From contig DAIDJL010000004.1 of assembly GCA_027450205.1 (NCBI GenBank), positions 139,932-203,931 on the forward strand: DNA of 64,000 nt. The letters are read 5' to 3'. This document shows, one piece after another, positions 7,378 through 50,206 of this stretch (positions are counted from its first letter, which is position 1; each line of letters starts with the position of its first letter). Source of the DNA: Candidatus Parcubacteria bacterium. Lineage in GTDB: Bacteria; Patescibacteriota; Minisyncoccia; UBA6257; 2-01-FULL-56-20. The position numbers and the translations under genes were made by a program. The notes beneath the pieces were generated by a model that was given only the letters and a program-made list of their open reading frames with translations, had not been told where the DNA came from and searched no databases.

Positions 7378-8238
7378 ATGAATAAAAAATATCTTACCAT
7401 GGCCGCATCGATCGGAGCCGCGCTTGCGATCATTGCCGGAGCGGTATCTCCCGCCTTTGCGCTGGCAGGCGTCGGGCTTGGAGTGAGCGCGGGCGCATCC
7501 GGATCGGTGTCCGGCACCGGAGTAGGCGTCGGCGCCGCCATTAATGCCGCCCTTGCCACCCGTATTAAGAACATCACCACTCGTGCCGATGCGGAGATCA
7601 CCCGCCGTATCAATGCAATGAACGCGTTGAGTGCGCGGCTGAGCAACGTCATTCGTCTTTCAGCGACGGAGAAGAACGATCTCTCCGCTACGATACAGGC
7701 GCAGATCGCTGCGATGAATTCCCTGCAGGCGCAGATCGCTGCCGATGCCCAGGCGAACAATACAAGCAGCCTTAAGGCTGACGTGCAGTCCATCATCGCT
7801 TCATATCGCATTTTTGCGCTGATCCTTCCGCAGGCGACGATCGAAGCCGCAGGTGGCCGAGCTCTTACGATCGCGGGCATATTGACCAATCTTAGCGCCA
7901 AGCTTTCGGCGCGCATCTCGGAGGCGCAGACGGCCGGCAATAATACGACCGCCGCCGCTTCGGCCCTCGCCGACATGAACGCCAAGATCGCTGACGGTAA
8001 CACGCAGGCAAATGCGGCGATCGCGGGAGTTGTTTCGCTCAAGCCGGATAACGGCAATAAGACCGTCATGGCGTCAAATGAGGCGGCTTTGAAGGCTGCC
8101 CGCTCAAAGATCCAGGCGGCCCAACAGGATTTTGTTGCCGCGCGCACCGATGCGCTTGCGATCATCAAAGCTCTCAGGACCTTCAAGGTTTCCGCGGGCG
8201 CGAATGCTACCGCGACCGCTTCTACAAGCGTGCAATAA
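7378..8238 (+). CDS. Hypothetical secreted Ala-rich coiled-coil protein
   Basis: Signal peptide; low-complexity Ala/Gln/Asn heptad-like repeats. The overlapping antisense ORF 7368..8186 is judged spurious. Confidence 0.5.
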   Translation: MNKKYLTMAASIGAALAIIAGAVSPAFALAGVGLGVSAGASGSVSGTGVGVGAAINAALATRIKNITTRADAEITRRINAMNALSARLSNVIRLSATEKNDLSATIQAQIAAMNSLQAQIAADAQANNTSSLKADVQSIIASYRIFALILPQATIEAAGGRALTIAGILTNLSAKLSARISEAQTAGNNTTAAASALADMNAKIADGNTQANAAIAGVVSLKPDNGNKTVMASNEAALKAARSKIQAAQQDFVAARTDALAIIKALRTFKVSAGANATATASTSVQ

Positions 8239-41510: not shown

Positions 41511-43277
41511 TCAGAGATGGATAAGCGGAACGGTTGACGATTGGAATCCGGGACCGACGGATACCGTGGTGGAATTCTGATTATAATTCGCCGCGCTCAC
41601 GCTTACCGTGTATGTACCTTGCGGAAGGCTGGTAAAAAGCGTCTGCGCAGGCGGCACACAGTTCGCGGAGAAACCGAACGTGACGCCCGTAAGCGCCGGC
41701 GTATAGTTCTGATCCTGGGTGGACATGAATACCTTATAGCGCAGGTAGCGGTTTCCAGAAAGCGACACAGGCAATGTGCTCGGGGTCGTCGTGAAATAGG
41801 TGCCGGACGTTCCGTCGGGACCGACGAAATTCCATGTGGCATCGTCGTTGTTCGCCGCAACCTGGAACGCGATGCTTCCCGCACCCGTCTGCGACGGTTG
41901 TGATACCGGCGTCCACGACATCCACGGGATCGTAGAGCTCGATCCGCCGAGATCGATCGTATTGGAAATGAGCCATTCGGTCACCGAAGTCGGGAATGTT
42001 CCCGATGCGTTCACAAGCAGTTGGAGCACGCCGGGTACGCTCGTATCCATTCCCCCGCTCTGGCTCGCGTATTGTCCGCCCGACCAGTCCGTCTGGGAGA
42101 CCGTTGCCTGGCCGGTGGTCTGCGTTTCGGAAAATCCGGATCCCGACATGGTAACGCTTGCCCCCGTGATCCCCGCCCCCGTCGCCGCATCGGTGACGGT
42201 GGTCAGGAGCGACGGGTCAGCCGCCGGTTCAAGCACGAACTGAAATGCCTGCGTGGAACTGGGATTCACGGTCACTGGGTCAAGCGGGATGGTACCCATA
42301 AGATCGCGGGAAACATCGGAAAGTGAGAGCGTATACGTGTCCCATTCCATGTTTTGCATCAACGTCGTGCCGTTTGCACCCATCGTCGTTGTAGTGGAGA
42401 ACTTCAGAACGTCCGGCGATGTACCGATCAATTTTGCACCGGCGATGGAGAATGATTCGTTCGGCACGGCATTGCACCGGTCATCGGTCGCGGATACAGC
42501 AAGGGAGCTCGTGCGGTCAATGGCAAAGGTTATGGCGGTCACGGTCTGCGCCACAACGGTCGCATTCGGCTTGATTGGATTGGGATTTCCGGCGCCGCCG
42601 ACCGGGTAGGTCTGGTCCGTCGAGTAACCCGGCTTGGTGACGCTGATCCAATATCCCTGCGTGCTTGTCGGCACCCCCACGAGCTCCAACACGCCGCTCG
42701 CGTTCGTCGTATCGGTGAGATCGATGGATGGTGTCACTGACGCGTTCACCACATTTACCGTCGCTCCGGGGACGCCTATGCCGTTCGCGTCGAGCGCGTA
42801 GATAAAAAGGGATCCGTCCTGCGTGGCGCTTTCCAGATTTTTGGGCGCGACGGTCGTCGTGATGGTCATGGAGACGGGATTATCGCAGAGCGGACATAAC
42901 GCCGTGATGGAAACCATTTTGTAATCGGCGGGCGCGGTGTCGTTCGGATTACCGCCAAGCGTGCCGTCAAACGGGTCATCGATGTTGCGGATCGTCGTCT
43001 GGAGGATGAAATTATAGCTGCCCATGGTGACAGTCTGCGACTGCGGGATGATGCCGGTCGGCACGCCGCCGACCGTTCCAACGCTGTCGTACGGCAGATC
43101 GCGGATCATCTCTATTTCATTGCCGACAGCCGCCGTTTCCGCGCTGCGCACGCTCACGTTCGCTACGGCGGTGATGATGGAAAAATAGACGAGATAGATG
43201 CCGCCGAACAATACCGCGACGATCGCCATACTGATCACGAGATCTATTAAGCTGGTTCCTTTAGTGGCCTGTTTCAC
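41511..43277 (-). CDS. Large prepilin-type protein (588 aa) with carboxypeptidase-regulatory/Ig-like beta domains; putative pilus tip or adhesin subunit
   Basis: KGTSLIDLVISMAIVAVLF prepilin-like N-terminus followed by a long Thr/Ser/Gly-rich beta region. Confidence 0.5.
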   Translation of the reverse strand: MKQATKGTSLIDLVISMAIVAVLFGGIYLVYFSIITAVANVSVRSAETAAVGNEIEMIRDLPYDSVGTVGGVPTGIIPQSQTVTMGSYNFILQTTIRNIDDPFDGTLGGNPNDTAPADYKMVSITALCPLCDNPVSMTITTTVAPKNLESATQDGSLFIYALDANGIGVPGATVNVVNASVTPSIDLTDTTNASGVLELVGVPTSTQGYWISVTKPGYSTDQTYPVGGAGNPNPIKPNATVVAQTVTAITFAIDRTSSLAVSATDDRCNAVPNESFSIAGAKLIGTSPDVLKFSTTTTMGANGTTLMQNMEWDTYTLSLSDVSRDLMGTIPLDPVTVNPSSTQAFQFVLEPAADPSLLTTVTDAATGAGITGASVTMSGSGFSETQTTGQATVSQTDWSGGQYASQSGGMDTSVPGVLQLLVNASGTFPTSVTEWLISNTIDLGGSSSTIPWMSWTPVSQPSQTGAGSIAFQVAANNDDATWNFVGPDGTSGTYFTTTPSTLPVSLSGNRYLRYKVFMSTQDQNYTPALTGVTFGFSANCVPPAQTLFTSLPQGTYTVSVSAANYNQNSTTVSVGPGFQSSTVPLIHL

Positions 43278-44353: not shown

Positions 44354-45586
44354 TTATTCGTGGATGACCCGCAATATTTCCTCGATGGAGGTAAGCCCCT
44401 TTCCGGCGCTTATGAGCGCATCGTCTATCATCGTGGTCATGCCGTCCTGGATCGCCGCTTCCTTGATCTCGTTGGCATCCGCGCGGCTCATGATCAATTT
44501 CTGGATCGAGTCCCTTACTTCCAGAACCTCATGGATGGCGATGCGGCCGCGGTATCCGGCATTATTGCATTCTTCGCAGCCCTTCGGGCTATAGAATTTC
44601 ATATCTTCATCAAGCGACGGGATCAACTCCTTCAAACTGCGGATCTCTTCCCGGGACATTTTCCGCTCAACCTTGCAACTCTGGCAAAGCTTGCGCACCA
44701 ACCGCTGGCTGATCGCAACGTTCACCGTGGACGCCACAAGGAATGACGGCACGCCCATATCGAGCAGGCGCGGGAATGTCGTTGCGGCATCATTGGTATG
44801 CAGCGTGGAAAGCAGCAGGTGTCCGGTGAGCGCGGCCTGCACCGAGACCGATGCCGTCTCTTCGTCGCGGATCTCGCCCACCATGATGATATTCGGATCC
44901 TGCCGCAAAATGGAACGTAATCCGGCGGCAAATGTAAGGCCGACATCGGTGTTGGTCTGGATCTGCGTCGTTCCGTCAAGAGAATATTCTATCGGGTCTT
45001 CGATCGTGATGATGGATACCTCCGGCTTATTGAGCTGCTTCAAGATGGTATATAAAAGCGTTGTCTTTCCGGAACCGGTTGGGCCGTTTGCAAGGATCAT
45101 ACCGTACGGCTTCGCGATCGCGCCCCGGATCTTTTTAAGATCCGCCGGCGAAAAACCGAATGTATCAAGCTCGAAGGTTTGCGTTTCCGCGAGCACGCGC
45201 ATGATCACATTCTCGCCGTAATATGTCGGGATGATGGAAACACGCACATCAACACCTCCTGTTTCTTCGATCACGACCTTAAAACGTCCGTCCTGCGGCA
45301 AAAGATGTTCATCGGTGCGCAGGCCGGCAAGAACCTTGATGCGGCTCACCACTTCCTGATGGAGCTCTTTTTTTATCTTTGCCTCTTTGAAGCTGTCGTA
45401 GAGCAGTCCGTCAATGCGATAGCGCACGCGGAGCATATCCTTCGTCGGTTCAATATGAATATCCGACGCACCAATGGCGTAGGCATATTCCACGAACAGA
45501 TCCACAAGTTTTATGATAGAAACCTTCTCCAGCGACTCCGCGAACTCTTTTTCAATAAGGGGTTTAAGGGATTTGATATCGCGCAT
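44354..45586 (-). CDS. pilB: Type IV pilus assembly ATPase PilB (GspE family)
   Basis: Walker A GPTGSGKTT; Asp box; His box; C-terminal tetracysteine CxxC...CEEC. Start placed at MRDIKSL so it does not overlap tRNA-Gln. Confidence 0.85.
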   Translation of the reverse strand: MRDIKSLKPLIEKEFAESLEKVSIIKLVDLFVEYAYAIGASDIHIEPTKDMLRVRYRIDGLLYDSFKEAKIKKELHQEVVSRIKVLAGLRTDEHLLPQDGRFKVVIEETGGVDVRVSIIPTYYGENVIMRVLAETQTFELDTFGFSPADLKKIRGAIAKPYGMILANGPTGSGKTTLLYTILKQLNKPEVSIITIEDPIEYSLDGTTQIQTNTDVGLTFAAGLRSILRQDPNIIMVGEIRDEETASVSVQAALTGHLLLSTLHTNDAATTFPRLLDMGVPSFLVASTVNVAISQRLVRKLCQSCKVERKMSREEIRSLKELIPSLDEDMKFYSPKGCEECNNAGYRGRIAIHEVLEVRDSIQKLIMSRADANEIKEAAIQDGMTTMIDDALISAGKGLTSIEEILRVIHE

Positions 45587-45640
45587 GGTTCTATTGTACC
45601 ATATGAAGCGCGGGCATGCTGCACCGCAAGCTTTATAATT

Positions 45641-45711
45641 TGCCGGATCATCTAATGGTAGGATAGTGGACTCTGAATCCATTCATCTTGGTTCGAATCC
45701 AAGTCCGGCAG
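45641..45711 (+). tRNA. tRNA-Gln (anticodon CTG), U1:A72 with G73 discriminator
   Basis: TGCCGGATCATCTAATGGTAGGATAGTGGACTCTGAATCCATTCATCTTGGTTCGAATCCAAGTCCGGCAG folds into a cloverleaf. TATAAT lies at about 45633-45638. Confidence 0.8.
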
Positions 45712-45747
45712 CACGAGATTCTGCTATTGGCCTCTCGACGATCTTTC

Positions 45748-46938
45748 TTACGGACGGCCGGCAATCAGACGGCCGAGCATCTGCATGAACGAAGCGAAAG
45801 GATAAAGAATGGTTGCGCCAAGCGTTGATGTGGCGATCGGCGTAACGGACGACGCGGGTGGCGCACCACCTCCTTCGTTGAAATTGCATATCTGGCCCGC
45901 CGGACACGGAGGCGGCGTGCCGCCAGGCACCATCGCCGGGCTGGCAACGCATTCGCTTCCATTCCAATATTCATTCTCGCCGCATCCGCCGGGATGGCCG
46001 TATGGAGTAGAAGAGCCGGTTATTATGTAATGCGACATCGTGGATGTTCCCGGATTGTAATTGGATTGTTTGCTGAATGCCTGGCATTCCGCAGCGTGTG
46101 CGGGATCGCTGCAGTATGCCTGGCATGATGCATCCGATGTGCAACCGCCCGGTCCGGCCTGCGTCACCTTCATATTGCCCTGTGCCGCTCCCATCGCTTC
46201 GCCGAACGCACCACAGGCAGAGCCATGACCCGGGTCATTGCAATAGGTAAGGCATGCCTGAAGCGTGGTGCATCCGCCGGGCGTTCCCCCGCTCTGCAGC
46301 AGCTGCTGAAACTTTTGCAGTGCCTCTGGTGAAACATCGTTCGGCCCTCCATTCTGACCGCCAATACGAAGACCCGCCTTCTCCGAAAAAGCCGCACACG
46401 CCGGCGCATGGCTTTCGTCGCTGCAATATGCGTTGCACGAATCCTTTGAATCGCAGCCGCCCGGCATCGTTCCGCCCGCATTCAGATATGCAAGCACTTT
46501 TTCCGCATCGCCGAGGTCGCCGCCCGTGATGTCATGCGCTTTTGCAAATGCGACGCAGGCGCTCAAATGGGAAACCGTGGTGCAGTATGCGTCGCATGCG
46601 TCCGGCGAGCTGCATCCGCCGGGACCGGTTCCGGCATTTGCAAAGAGCGCGGCGAACTGGTCGGCATTCTTCGCTTGAGCCGCGCTTTCAATGCCGTTAC
46701 TTTCCGCAAATGCGGTGCACGCCTTCATATTCACAGGTTCGTTGCAGTATGCATGGCATGATGCCTGATCCGTGCAGTTGCCAAGCGCCGCGACCGGGAA
46801 TGCAATGCTGTTCGGTGATAGCGTAGACGGCGGAGGCGTAGATGACGAAGTCTGTGCGAATGCGACGAGTGCGAACAGCGCGCTTCCCGCAACCACTGCC
46901 ATTCTTATGGCGTTCCCGACAAGAAAAGAGATCTTCAT
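45748..46938 (-). CDS. Secreted protein with five tandem about 55-aa 4-Cys repeats (G-C-x-x-x-D/Q-x-C-x-A/T-Y-C-x-D/E-P-x-H-x-x-x-C-x-A-F)
   Basis: Signal peptide MKISFLVGN...AFAQ. Repeats read directly from the sequence. C-terminal Pro/Gly-rich tail. Confidence 0.5.
   Translation of the reverse strand: MKISFLVGNAIRMAVVAGSALFALVAFAQTSSSTPPPSTLSPNSIAFPVAALGNCTDQASCHAYCNEPVNMKACTAFAESNGIESAAQAKNADQFAALFANAGTGPGGCSSPDACDAYCTTVSHLSACVAFAKAHDITGGDLGDAEKVLAYLNAGGTMPGGCDSKDSCNAYCSDESHAPACAAFSEKAGLRIGGQNGGPNDVSPEALQKFQQLLQSGGTPGGCTTLQACLTYCNDPGHGSACGAFGEAMGAAQGNMKVTQAGPGGCTSDASCQAYCSDPAHAAECQAFSKQSNYNPGTSTMSHYIITGSSTPYGHPGGCGENEYWNGSECVASPAMVPGGTPPPCPAGQICNFNEGGGAPPASSVTPIATSTLGATILYPFASFMQMLGRLIAGRP
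45950..46760. repeat. Five tandem about 165-bp coding repeats inside the Cys-rich protein gene
   Basis: Recurrent GGC...GACGC...TATTGC... units at DNA and protein level. Confidence 0.5.
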
Positions 46939-46954
46939 AATGGTCGTAAAAAAA

Positions 46955-47248
46955 TTAAAATGGGTTTTTATAAGCGCCCTGGAATGGATCAAGACTGCTG
47001 CCGACGGTTCCCGTGGCGCTTGTACTTGTACTTGCATTTGTGCTTGCACCCGCGCCCGTACCGGATGCGTTGCTTGCGGCTGTCGTTGTGGCAATGTTCA
47101 TTGACGAAGTGGCCGTGGCGACGGCGGGATTTGCCGGTACCATCGGAGGGGTCGGCGCGGATGAATGCGGTAGCAGGAAATACCATACCGCAAAACCCAA
47201 CACTGCAATAACGACCGCCACCACGAGGATGATGAGATATTTTTTCAT
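46955..47248 (-). CDS. Hypothetical small membrane-anchored Ala/Thr/Ser-rich protein
   Basis: ORF with N-terminal TM. Confidence 0.35.
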   Translation of the reverse strand: MKKYLIILVVAVVIAVLGFAVWYFLLPHSSAPTPPMVPANPAVATATSSMNIATTTAASNASGTGAGASTNASTSTSATGTVGSSLDPFQGAYKNPF

Positions 47249-47586: not shown

Positions 47587-47688
47587 ATGCACCCCAACCC
47601 GCTCAATGGAAACCCATTGCCAGCGGGTTTCCTATTTTATGGTCAGGATTATGAAGGTATGCAATACCACGATCGCCGATGTATAATG

Positions 47689-48222
47689 CATGCGATGATC
47701 CTCCTCTTTACCGGCAATGGAAAAGGAAAAACGACCGCTTCCCTCGGGCAAATGATCCGGGTGCTGGGGCGGGACAAGACTGCGCTCATGATCCAGTTCA
47801 TCAAAGGGCCGTGGATATCCGGCGAAGACGAGTTCGCATCCGCATATGGCATCGCAAAAGACCGGTTTGAGATCCGAAAGATGGGATTGGGATTCGTCGG
47901 CATCCTCGGCGACCCTCTGCCGATCGAAAAACATAAAGAAGCGGCGCGGGACGCCCTCACAACCTTCATAGAGGAGAAGAATTCCGGAAAGTGGCACCTG
48001 ATAGTGCTCGATGAGATCAGTGTCGCGCTTTCGCTGGGACTGCTTGCACTGGACGAAGTCGTCAATGCCGTCAAAGATTATCCTGATAGCCGCATCCTTG
48101 TCCTGACCGGCCGCGGCGCGCCGCAGGAATTGATCGATGTCGCGGACCTTGCAACCGAGATGCGCGAGATAAAACATCCATTCAACGAAGGCAAGCCCGG
48201 GCAGGTCATGGTCGAGTTCTAG
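47689..48222 (+). CDS. ATP:cob(I)alamin adenosyltransferase (CobA/CobO/BtuR family)
   Basis: LLFTGNGKGKTTASLG P-loop and family-wide similarity; start placed at an internal Met. Confidence 0.65.
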   Translation, partial: HAMILLFTGNGKGKTTASLGQMIRVLGRDKTALMIQFIKGPWISGEDEFASAYGIAKDRFEIRKMGLGFVGILGDPLPIEKHKEAARDALTTFIEEKNSGKWHLIVLDEISVALSLGLLALDEVVNAVKDYPDSRILVLTGRGAPQELIDVADLATEMREIKHPFNEGKPGQVMVEF

Positions 48223-49432: not shown

Positions 49433-50206
49433 TCACGCGATCTTCTCCATCAGTGTTTCATAATCCTTTGTTGTGATATGCCAATCCCCCGGCCTCAGCG
49501 GGTTATCAAGATCGATCAGTACGAGGAAAATGGAATATGCGAGGCTGGCGATGCTCGCGGTAAAGAGGAATGCGAGATAGATATCATTGATGGCAATGAA
49601 CATAGAGAGAGCGATCAGCAGAAACGCGGCAAAGCGCAATGTGTTCCGCAACAGCGGCGGAATATGTTCGGCGCTGTGCTGCAGCCGTGCCGAACGATGG
49701 TTGAGCACGACGGACAACAGCGCGAATGATGTCGGCATAAGCTGCGGTGCCTCGTCAAAAATTTTGTAAATACTGTTATTGAGGTCGGCGATGACATCTT
49801 CCACCTCCTTGCTCTTCTCCCCCTTTTCGCTATACTGCCAGCCTTCTTTTATAATGAGCGCGAGATAGCGTTTGATATTGGTATGGATCTCGTTCTTTAT
49901 TGTTTTCGGAAAATTGCTTGACCAGAGATACAGCTTTTCAAGCCCGTCCACCTCGCCGCGCACCGCATCGGTGAGCGAGTTCCATTCATCCCATTCTTTT
50001 TGAATGGCAAAACCGGCAAGCACGCCGAAAATGGTACCGACAACGGCGTAGAGCCATGGAATGCCGTCGCTGTTTGAAAGCAATAGACGCGTGTCATATA
50101 AGCTGCTCGTGCGAATAAAATAAAATATCGTCCAAAAAATCGCCAGAAACGGAATAAGTTTTTTAATGAGTGCCATATGGAGTAATATTATCACGTATAC
50201 CGTCAA
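49433..50206 (-). CDS. Hypothetical membrane protein (2 N-terminal and 2 C-terminal TMs flanking a cytoplasmic domain)
   Basis: Topology inferred from hydrophobicity. Confidence 0.4.
   Translation of the reverse strand: MTVYVIILLHMALIKKLIPFLAIFWTIFYFIRTSSLYDTRLLLSNSDGIPWLYAVVGTIFGVLAGFAIQKEWDEWNSLTDAVRGEVDGLEKLYLWSSNFPKTIKNEIHTNIKRYLALIIKEGWQYSEKGEKSKEVEDVIADLNNSIYKIFDEAPQLMPTSFALLSVVLNHRSARLQHSAEHIPPLLRNTLRFAAFLLIALSMFIAINDIYLAFLFTASIASLAYSIFLVLIDLDNPLRPGDWHITTKDYETLMEKIA

Follow-up and report, generated by a model that had tools for sequence, protein, structure and literature searches.

Introduction

Helical hairpins stabilised by cysteines are well known from the plant alpha-hairpinins, the CS-alpha/alpha toxins and the mitochondrial CHCH proteins with their twin CX3C/CX9C motifs. 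In eukaryotic endocytosis, NPF motifs are recognised by EH domains. Patescibacteria (CPR) may represent a substantial part of bacterial diversity. They live attached to other microbes, and their surface molecules are little known. Here we describe a locus of this group that encodes an array of four-cysteine units together with a membrane micro-protein ending in NPF motifs. The window, that is, the whole stretch of DNA analysed (64,000 nucleotides), carries both genes on its minus strand. The upstream gene (46955-47248), absent from the initial annotation, is invariably linked to the Cys-repeat gene and is the strongest functional clue that the locus provides. The features discussed below are the following (positions in the window, strand, description):

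45748..46938, minus strand: Cys-repeat gene, 396 aa plus stop codon, ATG start
46855..46938, minus strand: Sec signal peptide, aa 1-28, with SPase I cleavage predicted between AFA and QT, as read from the sequence
46696..46800, minus strand: unit 1, aa 47-81, capping variant FPVAALGNC-x5-C-x3-C-x8-C-x2-F, pLDDT ~95
46534..46626, minus strand: unit 2, aa 105-135, GPGGC-x5-C-x3-C-x8-C-x2-F, from alignment and AlphaFold2 (AF2)
46375..46467, minus strand: unit 3, aa 158-188, from pattern, alignment and AF2
46192..46284, minus strand: unit 4, aa 219-249, from pattern, alignment and AF2
46063..46155, minus strand: unit 5, aa 262-292, from pattern, alignment and AF2
45823..46062, minus strand: Gly/Pro/Ser/Thr-rich region, aa 293-372, from composition and AF2
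45751..45822, minus strand: C-terminal hydrophobic/amphipathic helix LGATILYPFASFMQMLGRLIAGRP, aa 373-396, modelled by AF2 as a helix at 379-392 with low pLDDT
46955..47248, minus strand: partner gene, encoding a 97-aa bitopic micro-protein, from ORF and translation
45641-45712, plus strand: tRNA-Gln(CTG), between the Cys-repeat gene and pilB

The Cys-Repeat Protein

The longest open reading frame on the minus strand spans 45748-47094. Its start was placed at the ATG at 46938, a choice backed by the near invariance of M1 in the homologue alignment, and the resulting protein is 100% identical to database entry P0001. It is built of a signal peptide, five four-Cys units, a Gly/Pro-rich tail and a C-terminal amphipathic helix. 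The signal peptide, MKISFLVGNAIRMAVVAGSALFALVAFA followed by QT, combines K2 and R12 with a hydrophobic core and an AxA cleavage site, is devoid of a lipobox and is modelled by AF2 as a helix (residues 3-31). In close homologues A28 is invariant and Q29 nearly invariant. These are the traits of a typical Sec/SPase-I signal cleaved between AFA and Q, and this prediction supports a secreted or extracytoplasmic location of the protein, as had been proposed in the initial annotation. Scanning for promoters and terminators returned scores at the level of shuffled sequences.

The first cysteines (C1) of units 1-5 are found at residues 55, 109, 162, 223 and 266, with successive spacings of 54, 53, 61 and 43 residues, and all five units match C-x5-C-x3-C-x8-C-x2-F. 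When the protein was shuffled 20,000 times, only three shuffles contained even one such match, as compared with the five matches observed. The fuller motif of this protein reads (P/L)G(G/N)C-x5-C-x2-YC-x4-(H/N)-x3-C-x2-FA. In a 50-sequence alignment every repeat cysteine is invariant (20/20). Within unit 1 the same alignment shows P48 and L52 to be invariant alongside C55, C61, C65 and C74, and G53 to be nearly so. Family members carry after the signal peptide a capping-unit signature, (I/V)xFP(I/V)AxLG(N/G)C, which takes the form IAFPVAALGNC in the window protein. Pattern match, shuffles and invariant cysteines thus confirm the five tandem 4-Cys units reported earlier. The repeat pattern then given was essentially right, but two of its spacers were off by one: C1 and C2 are separated by x5 and not x4, and C3 and C4 by x8 (C-x2-P-x-H/N-x3-C) and not x9. 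The "GGC" described as invariant is found in units 2-5, unit 1 reading LGNC, while the proline, also taken to be invariant, is present in units 1, 4 and 5 but not in units 2 and 3.

At the DNA level, the units are 51-56% identical to one another, their longest common exact word measures 13 nt, and the TRF program detected no tandem repeat inside the Cys-repeat gene. Slippage is unlikely because the units are too diverged, and the earlier suggestion that DNA repeats could mediate length variation is not supported. The repeat array is ancient and diverged rather than slippage-prone, and the number of units varies on evolutionary timescales.

AF2, run with the 50-sequence alignment, modelled the units with pLDDT values of ~90-97. 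In the predicted fold, C1 is placed in a loop that precedes helix A, which bears C2 and C3 (CX3C). A tight turn then leads to helix B with C4, after which a linker helix of 14-17 residues runs to the next GPGGC. A separate model of two units gave the same fold with a mean pLDDT of 84.8. The modelled geometry of the unit resembles that of cysteine-stabilised helical hairpins, and two disulfides per unit are the most plausible reading of its four cysteines. According to Meheust et al. (bioRxiv 10.1101/335083), genes for an MdbA-like thiol-disulfide oxidoreductase and for VKOR are enriched in CPR. A motif scan of the 64-kb window revealed no MdbA, VKOR, thioredoxin-type CxxC or Dsb-like gene.

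The Gly/Pro-rich C-terminus noted previously is indeed present. The 80 residues that precede the last helix comprise 16% Gly and 15% Pro, as well as four further cysteines located in CGENEYWNGSEC ... PPPCPAGQIC. According to the AF2 model, this region (aa 293-372) would contain a small beta-hairpin at aa 323-332 and otherwise be disordered; it is conserved in the closest relatives only (P0002-P0007). The modelled C-terminal helix may serve as a tail that binds the membrane or the partner. Comparable ends are seen in about half of the family, as 86 of 184 distinct homologue C-termini pass the hydrophobicity threshold. In 57 of these 86 the last residue is R or K, the tail following a Pro/Ser/Gln-rich linker. 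Where present, the helix is short, with 14-16 hydrophobic residues. Judged by sequence, the succession of a Pro/Ser/Gln spacer, a hydrophobic helix and a basic end resembles a stop-transfer sequence or a tail anchor.

Family Size and Distribution

A word-indexed search retrieved 132 relatives at E <= 1e-3. All named relatives are "hypothetical proteins" from Patescibacteria lineages (Kaiser-, Lipton-, Uhr-, Niyogi-, Azam-, Nomura- and Daviesbacteria) or from unclassified bacterial MAGs. An exhaustive HMM search, using the 50-sequence profile against representatives of clusters at 50% identity, yielded 2,056 representatives at E <= 1e-3, of which 1,329 reached E <= 1e-30. These 132 homologues and some 2,000 cluster representatives, the invariance of the repeat cysteines among the homologues and the confident AF2 model refute the idea that the gene is a chance ORF or an annotation artefact, for which the sole argument is that it lacks a database annotation.

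When one genome per GTDB species was scanned with an alignment of 11 closer sequences, 139 species genomes were found to carry a relative. Each of the best 80 among these 139 loci is from an assembly of its own, and on this basis the gene pair appears to be single-copy. Almost all of the 80 assemblies are labelled Patescibacteria/CPR. A few records bear, as given, generic labels such as "Saccharibacteria", "Gammaproteobacteria" or "Eisenbacteria". The pair spans many CPR lineages (Kaiser-, Wolfe-, Uhr-, Azam-, Yanofsky-, Colwell-, Sung- and Daviesbacteria), and the family is restricted to the Patescibacteria clade as far as record names show.

Family members contain from one to 11 units that follow the strict pattern, with a mode of five. 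The family signature, derived from 1,416 distinct units, is (P/L)-G-(G/N)-C-x5-C-x2-(Y/F)-C-x4-(H/N)-x3-C-x2-F-(A/G)-x3-G-(L/F/I). Of ~1,518 motif instances, 1,369 (~90%) have the 5/8 spacing. Proteins with at least two signature units are assigned to the family, and the window protein has five. Some members carry additional modules. A Kazal domain is fused as a separate extra domain in P0073, and a ConA-like lectin domain (Laminin_G_3) is present in P0215 and P0297 (E ~1e-25). Such fusions fit a surface scaffold that presents binding modules.

Neither protein of the pair gave a credible match in Pfam-A (2025), NCBIfam, PHROGs or PADLOC, and for the Cys-repeat protein the PDB returned none by sequence or by Foldseek. 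The earlier statement that the repeat matches no described family therefore holds for all of these resources. The Pfam scan, which also took in 18 homologues, gave for the window protein a single match, Nodulin_late, with an E-value of 0.66 and 10.8 bits versus a cut-off of 30.4. The protein has no match above the gathering score to the Kazal, defensin-like/AtDEF-like, late nodulin, ShK, anaphylatoxin or saposin families. Matches to Nodulin_late and to a Zot-like family were rejected as marginal or compositional. Those to AtDEF-like, AcrIC5 and DUF2680 in homologues were likewise marginal, with zero or one matched stretch, and fell on signal peptides or single Cys motifs. In the searchable literature we found neither the domain nor the NPF-tail micro-protein described, nor the pairing of the two, and searches there turned up no expression, proteomic or genetic data on them.

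The Upstream Partner Micro-Protein

Between the end of the partner gene and the ATG of the Cys-repeat gene lie 16 nt. Its product begins with a short basic N-terminus (MKK), followed by one transmembrane helix (aa 4-26, nt 47171-47239), a linker rich in Ser, Thr, Ala and Pro, and a C-terminal tail ...LDPFQGAYKNPF that runs up to the stop codon (nt 46958-46993), the last residues of which are ...DPFQGAYKNPF. The very short basic N-terminus and the single transmembrane helix imply that the NPF tail must face outward.

The two genes obligately co-occur in every locus examined. A partner is encoded directly upstream and on the same strand in all 74 distinct complete loci (70 were recognised by an automatic rule and the remaining four by inspection), and clustering of all flanking ORFs identified it as the sole conserved neighbour. 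The gap between the two genes is typically from -26 to about +30 nt, the genes often overlapping, and this tight spacing suggests stoichiometric co-expression. Public gene calls at times miss the partner: at locus L001 an ORF on the opposite strand is called instead, and at L010 nothing is called.

A set of 82 distinct partner proteins ranges from 68 to 115 aa in length (median 88). In all of them a single, strongly hydrophobic helix at the N-terminus (median Kyte-Doolittle value 2.8) is followed by a variable low-complexity linker and by one to five NP(F/L/I/V/Y) motifs, mostly two to four, with a dominant spacing of eight residues. NPF closes the series in 78 of 79 cases, with (Y/K)(K/T) before it and 0-2 residues after it, so that the consensus end can be written as ...(Y/K)(K/T)NPF(E). 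A search with the window partner as a single sequence found no relatives. With a 30-sequence partner profile, 72 relatives were retrieved, which measure 74-137 aa, come without exception from CPR and are all annotated as hypothetical. In a reciprocal test, the gene immediately downstream of each of three small-protein matches (3/3) encoded a Cys-repeat protein.

Partners of proteins with more Cys units tend to have more NPx motifs, this correlation being modest, not 1:1 and not phylogeny-corrected (Spearman 0.48, p = 2e-5). The partner is also kept in 33 loci whose large protein has no strongly hydrophobic C-terminal tail by the Kyte-Doolittle threshold, which is consistent with the domains, and not the tail, being bound. 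We infer that the four-Cys domains bind the NPF motifs, by which the array would be tethered to the cell surface.

Proposed Function and Alternative Explanations

The best explanation of the locus as a whole, to which we assign a probability of about 0.45, is that the Cys-repeat protein serves as a scaffold or adhesin of the cell surface, stabilised by disulfides and retained at the membrane through its partner's NPF tail. After export and cleavage of the signal peptide, each unit would be locked by two disulfides, the likely catalyst being the MdbA-like oxidoreductase/VKOR pair enriched in CPR genomes. Two contacts would then keep the array on the outer side of the cytoplasmic membrane: its own C-terminal amphipathic helix, where one is present, and multivalent binding to the NPF tail of the co-expressed micro-protein. 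The complex could thus serve as a cell-envelope scaffold or adhesin, able to display extra modules such as the ConA-like lectin and Kazal domains. A more specific form of this proposal, which we put forward as speculative and would expect to fail rather than to hold, is an extracellular peptide-recognition system whose named lineages are only Patescibacteria. In such a system a disulfide-stapled helical fold would read tandem NPF motifs, and the combination of 2-11 domains with 2-5 motifs would form a surface tether or lattice organising the envelope or the contact with the host, as an independent extracytoplasmic counterpart of EH-domain/NPF recognition.

It is also conceivable, albeit on balance unlikely, that the two proteins act side by side without binding each other. 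The NPF tail might, for example, bind host or cell-wall material, or the micro-protein might be a helper in export or folding, while the Cys-repeat protein would be released as a soluble effector or adhesin acting on a host cell. The lectin and protease-inhibitor fusions would suit such a host-directed factor, and about half of the homologues have no clear C-terminal anchor. However, strict co-occurrence and tight or overlapping gene spacing are typical of stoichiometric partners, and hardly any of the micro-protein would lie in the cytoplasm, nor does it have an enzymatic domain. A different chemistry would be at work if the four cysteines of each unit ligated a metal (Zn, Cu(I) or an Fe-S centre), in which case the array would be devoted to extracytoplasmic metal storage, sensing or electron transfer. 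Many CPR inhabit anoxic groundwater, the four cysteines are absolutely invariant in every unit, and one position between C3 and C4 is confined to H or N (97%), all of which may be counted in favour of metal binding. We nevertheless regard it as improbable. The spacing C-x5-C-x3-C-x8-C corresponds to no known metal site, and no metal-binding Pfam or NCBIfam family matches. At the conserved polar position either H or N is found, and such alternation points to a structural role in hydrogen bonding or capping rather than that of a metal ligand. Moreover, Kazal and LamG, which occur in family members, are classical disulfide-containing extracellular modules, and CPR encode the MdbA-like/VKOR machinery for disulfide formation.

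The neighbourhood of the gene brings up a third alternative, namely that the Cys-repeat protein is associated with the pilus or located at its tip, and works with the adjacent type IV pilus operon. As stated in the initial annotation, the gene adjoins pilB with tRNA-Gln between them: in the window it lies 161 nt upstream of pilB (T2SSE, E = 8.5e-123) on the same strand, pilB being followed, on the minus strand, by pilC (T2SSF) and, further along the operon, by a 588-aa protein and two N_methyl pilins. By eye, the N-terminus of the 588-aa protein looks pilin-like. Proximity to pilus genes is encountered twice more, the module being 80 nt upstream of pilB-pilC in the distant relative L071 and ~4 kb away from pilB/pilC in L080. 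These two loci are, however, the only ones among 92 related loci with pilB/pilC within 10 kb. The linkage was assessed by tBLASTn with the window PilB and PilC on 84 distinct loci with ~1.03 Mb of flanking sequence (95 related loci had been collected, the first 92 of which were used for the context statistics). Two T2SSE loci per ~1 Mb amount to what a random CPR genome would contain, so that the linkage is at chance level and the adjacency seen in the window is not conserved. Clustering of the neighbours ties no pil gene family to the module, and an opposite-strand tRNA gene separates the Cys-repeat gene from pilB. The protein itself has an SPase-I signal and not a prepilin (class III) N-terminus, and it gives no N_methyl match, though the true pilins of the same operon do. 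The pilus association suggested earlier is accordingly very improbable, and membership of the module in the type IV pilus machinery is disfavoured.

As to the wider meaning of the proposed surface scaffold with its NPF-tail partner, the gene pair is a candidate, and one that is easy to recognise, for a component of the envelope or of attachment that would define the Patescibacteria lineage. Its presence in many CPR lineages, apparently in single copy, and its absence from domain databases make this candidate a concrete one. Turned into profile models, the domain signature and the NPF tail could serve to annotate thousands of "hypothetical" proteins.

Comparison With Known Systems

The four-Cys unit shares with the cysteine-stabilised hairpins a short helix-turn-helix, four cysteines and a CX3C pair on one helix. 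It differs from them in having one CX3C only and in the placement of C1 in a loop before helix A. Its 5/3/8 spacing is unique, and the units are arranged in tandem arrays of 2-11 with a linker helix in a bacterial, extracytoplasmic protein. Neither sequence nor Foldseek comparisons matched the units to cysteine-stabilised hairpin structures.

With EH/NPF recognition the likeness is one of analogy only: tandem NPF motifs in a disordered tail and small helical domains, which make multivalency possible, are common to both. The units match no EH or EF-hand family in Pfam and no such structure by Foldseek in the PDB. The module described here is extracellular and cysteine-stabilised, and its binding of NPF is putative.

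The exported, Cys-rich nature of the protein, the monoderm-like envelope and the likely route of oxidative folding are features in common with the MdbA/VKOR-dependent secreted proteins of Actinobacteria and CPR. Pilins are the MdbA/VKOR substrates discussed by Meheust et al., who do not mention the Cys-repeat family (bioRxiv 10.1101/335083).

In its overall layout, the Cys-repeat protein is reminiscent of the LPXTG/MSCRAMM surface proteins of Gram-positive bacteria, which likewise have a signal peptide, tandem repeats, a Pro-rich spacer and a hydrophobic C-terminus that ends with basic residues. It contains neither LPXTG nor another known sorting motif, and no NCBIfam sorting-signal model matches it. 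Unlike those of LPXTG/MSCRAMM proteins, its units are helical and Cys-rich rather than Ig-like, and a separate gene for an NPF-tail partner is always present. The general kind to which the locus belongs, a secreted, cysteine-stabilised tandem-repeat surface protein with an anchoring partner, is thus a familiar one; what is new is the four-Cys domain, the NPF-tail partner and the putative mode of recognition between them.

Domain architecture of the Cys-repeat family

In most homologues with a length of about 600 aa, the four-Cys units are followed by a second and distinct repeat with two Cys per copy, for which alignment A2 gives the consensus APPEVxxCLKxxLGxxxxxxIxxGxxxPxPxxGxxxxxCFExF. This repeat, found at about aa 330-560 of the homologous proteins P0016, P0018 and P0034, has no Pfam match, as is also the case for the four-Cys units, and it is absent from the Cys-repeat protein of the window. 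Some family members (proteins P0026, P0095, P0215 and P0297; loci L039, L054 and L078) have, in place of the hydrophobic helix, an alternative Cys-rich C-terminus of the form ...SCDYVP...C.KCK or ...CSYVG.PDSQNY.YCK.C.P... In addition, a Laminin_G_3 (ConA-like lectin) or Kazal domain is fused to some members, and at one homologous locus (L007) a gene for a Kazal-containing protein is a neighbor:

P0215, aa 841-992: fused Laminin_G_3
P0297, aa 672-825: fused Laminin_G_3
P0073, aa 428-456: fused Kazal domain
L007, 9583-10626: Gmad2 and Kazal protein gene, directly downstream of the Cys-repeat gene

The NPF-tail partner and its annotation

The only low-complexity DNA of the module lies within the partner gene, where TRF detected a short 6/12-nt periodicity (CTTGTA) at window 47019-47048, corresponding to the Ser/Thr/Ala-rich linker of the partner (…STNASTSTSAT…). 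At two homologous loci, this small partner is absent from public gene calls:

L001, 9715-9996 (+): partner; the public call is instead an opposite-strand ORF of 85 aa
L010, about 7703-7996 (+): partner; no gene called publicly

Across CPR genomes, the family is probably under-annotated.

The pilB start and the pilus operon

45682, start of the longest pilB ORF (-)
45641-45712 (+): tRNA-Gln
41511-43277 (-): 588-aa protein of the pilus operon, with CarboxypepD_reg-like domains (E = 1.9e-10)

The longest pilB ORF overlaps the opposite-strand tRNA-Gln; this overlap and the Pfam T2SSE match suggest that the true start is the ATG at 45586 (MRDIKSLKPL...) and not 45682, the region at issue being 45587-45682 (-). 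By eye, the N-terminus of the 588-aa protein is pilin-like (KG|TSLIDLVISMAIVAVLFGG), and no N_methyl Pfam match was obtained in this protein, for which a giant minor pilin and a tip adhesin are possible identities.

Other neighbors and taxonomic labels

By some record titles, which are unverified MAG labels, the module may occur outside Paceibacteria-type CPR, in Saccharibacteria or beyond CPR: the titles read 'Gammaproteobacteria' for L042 and L092, 'Eisenbacteria' for L090, and 'Saccharibacteria' for many TPA loci. Near the module are:

Window 47587-48222 (+): ATP:corrinoid adenosyltransferase (CobA/CobO/BtuR; E = 1.7e-48), adjoining the module
Window 49433-50206 (-): Bestrophin-like membrane protein
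L001, 11424-12065 (+): Bestrophin-like membrane protein

The adenosyltransferase gene seems unusual in a reduced CPR genome. L001 encodes P0005, which is among the closer homologues, and the Bestrophin-like gene near the module in the window and in L001 looks like residual local synteny that is not pilus-related.
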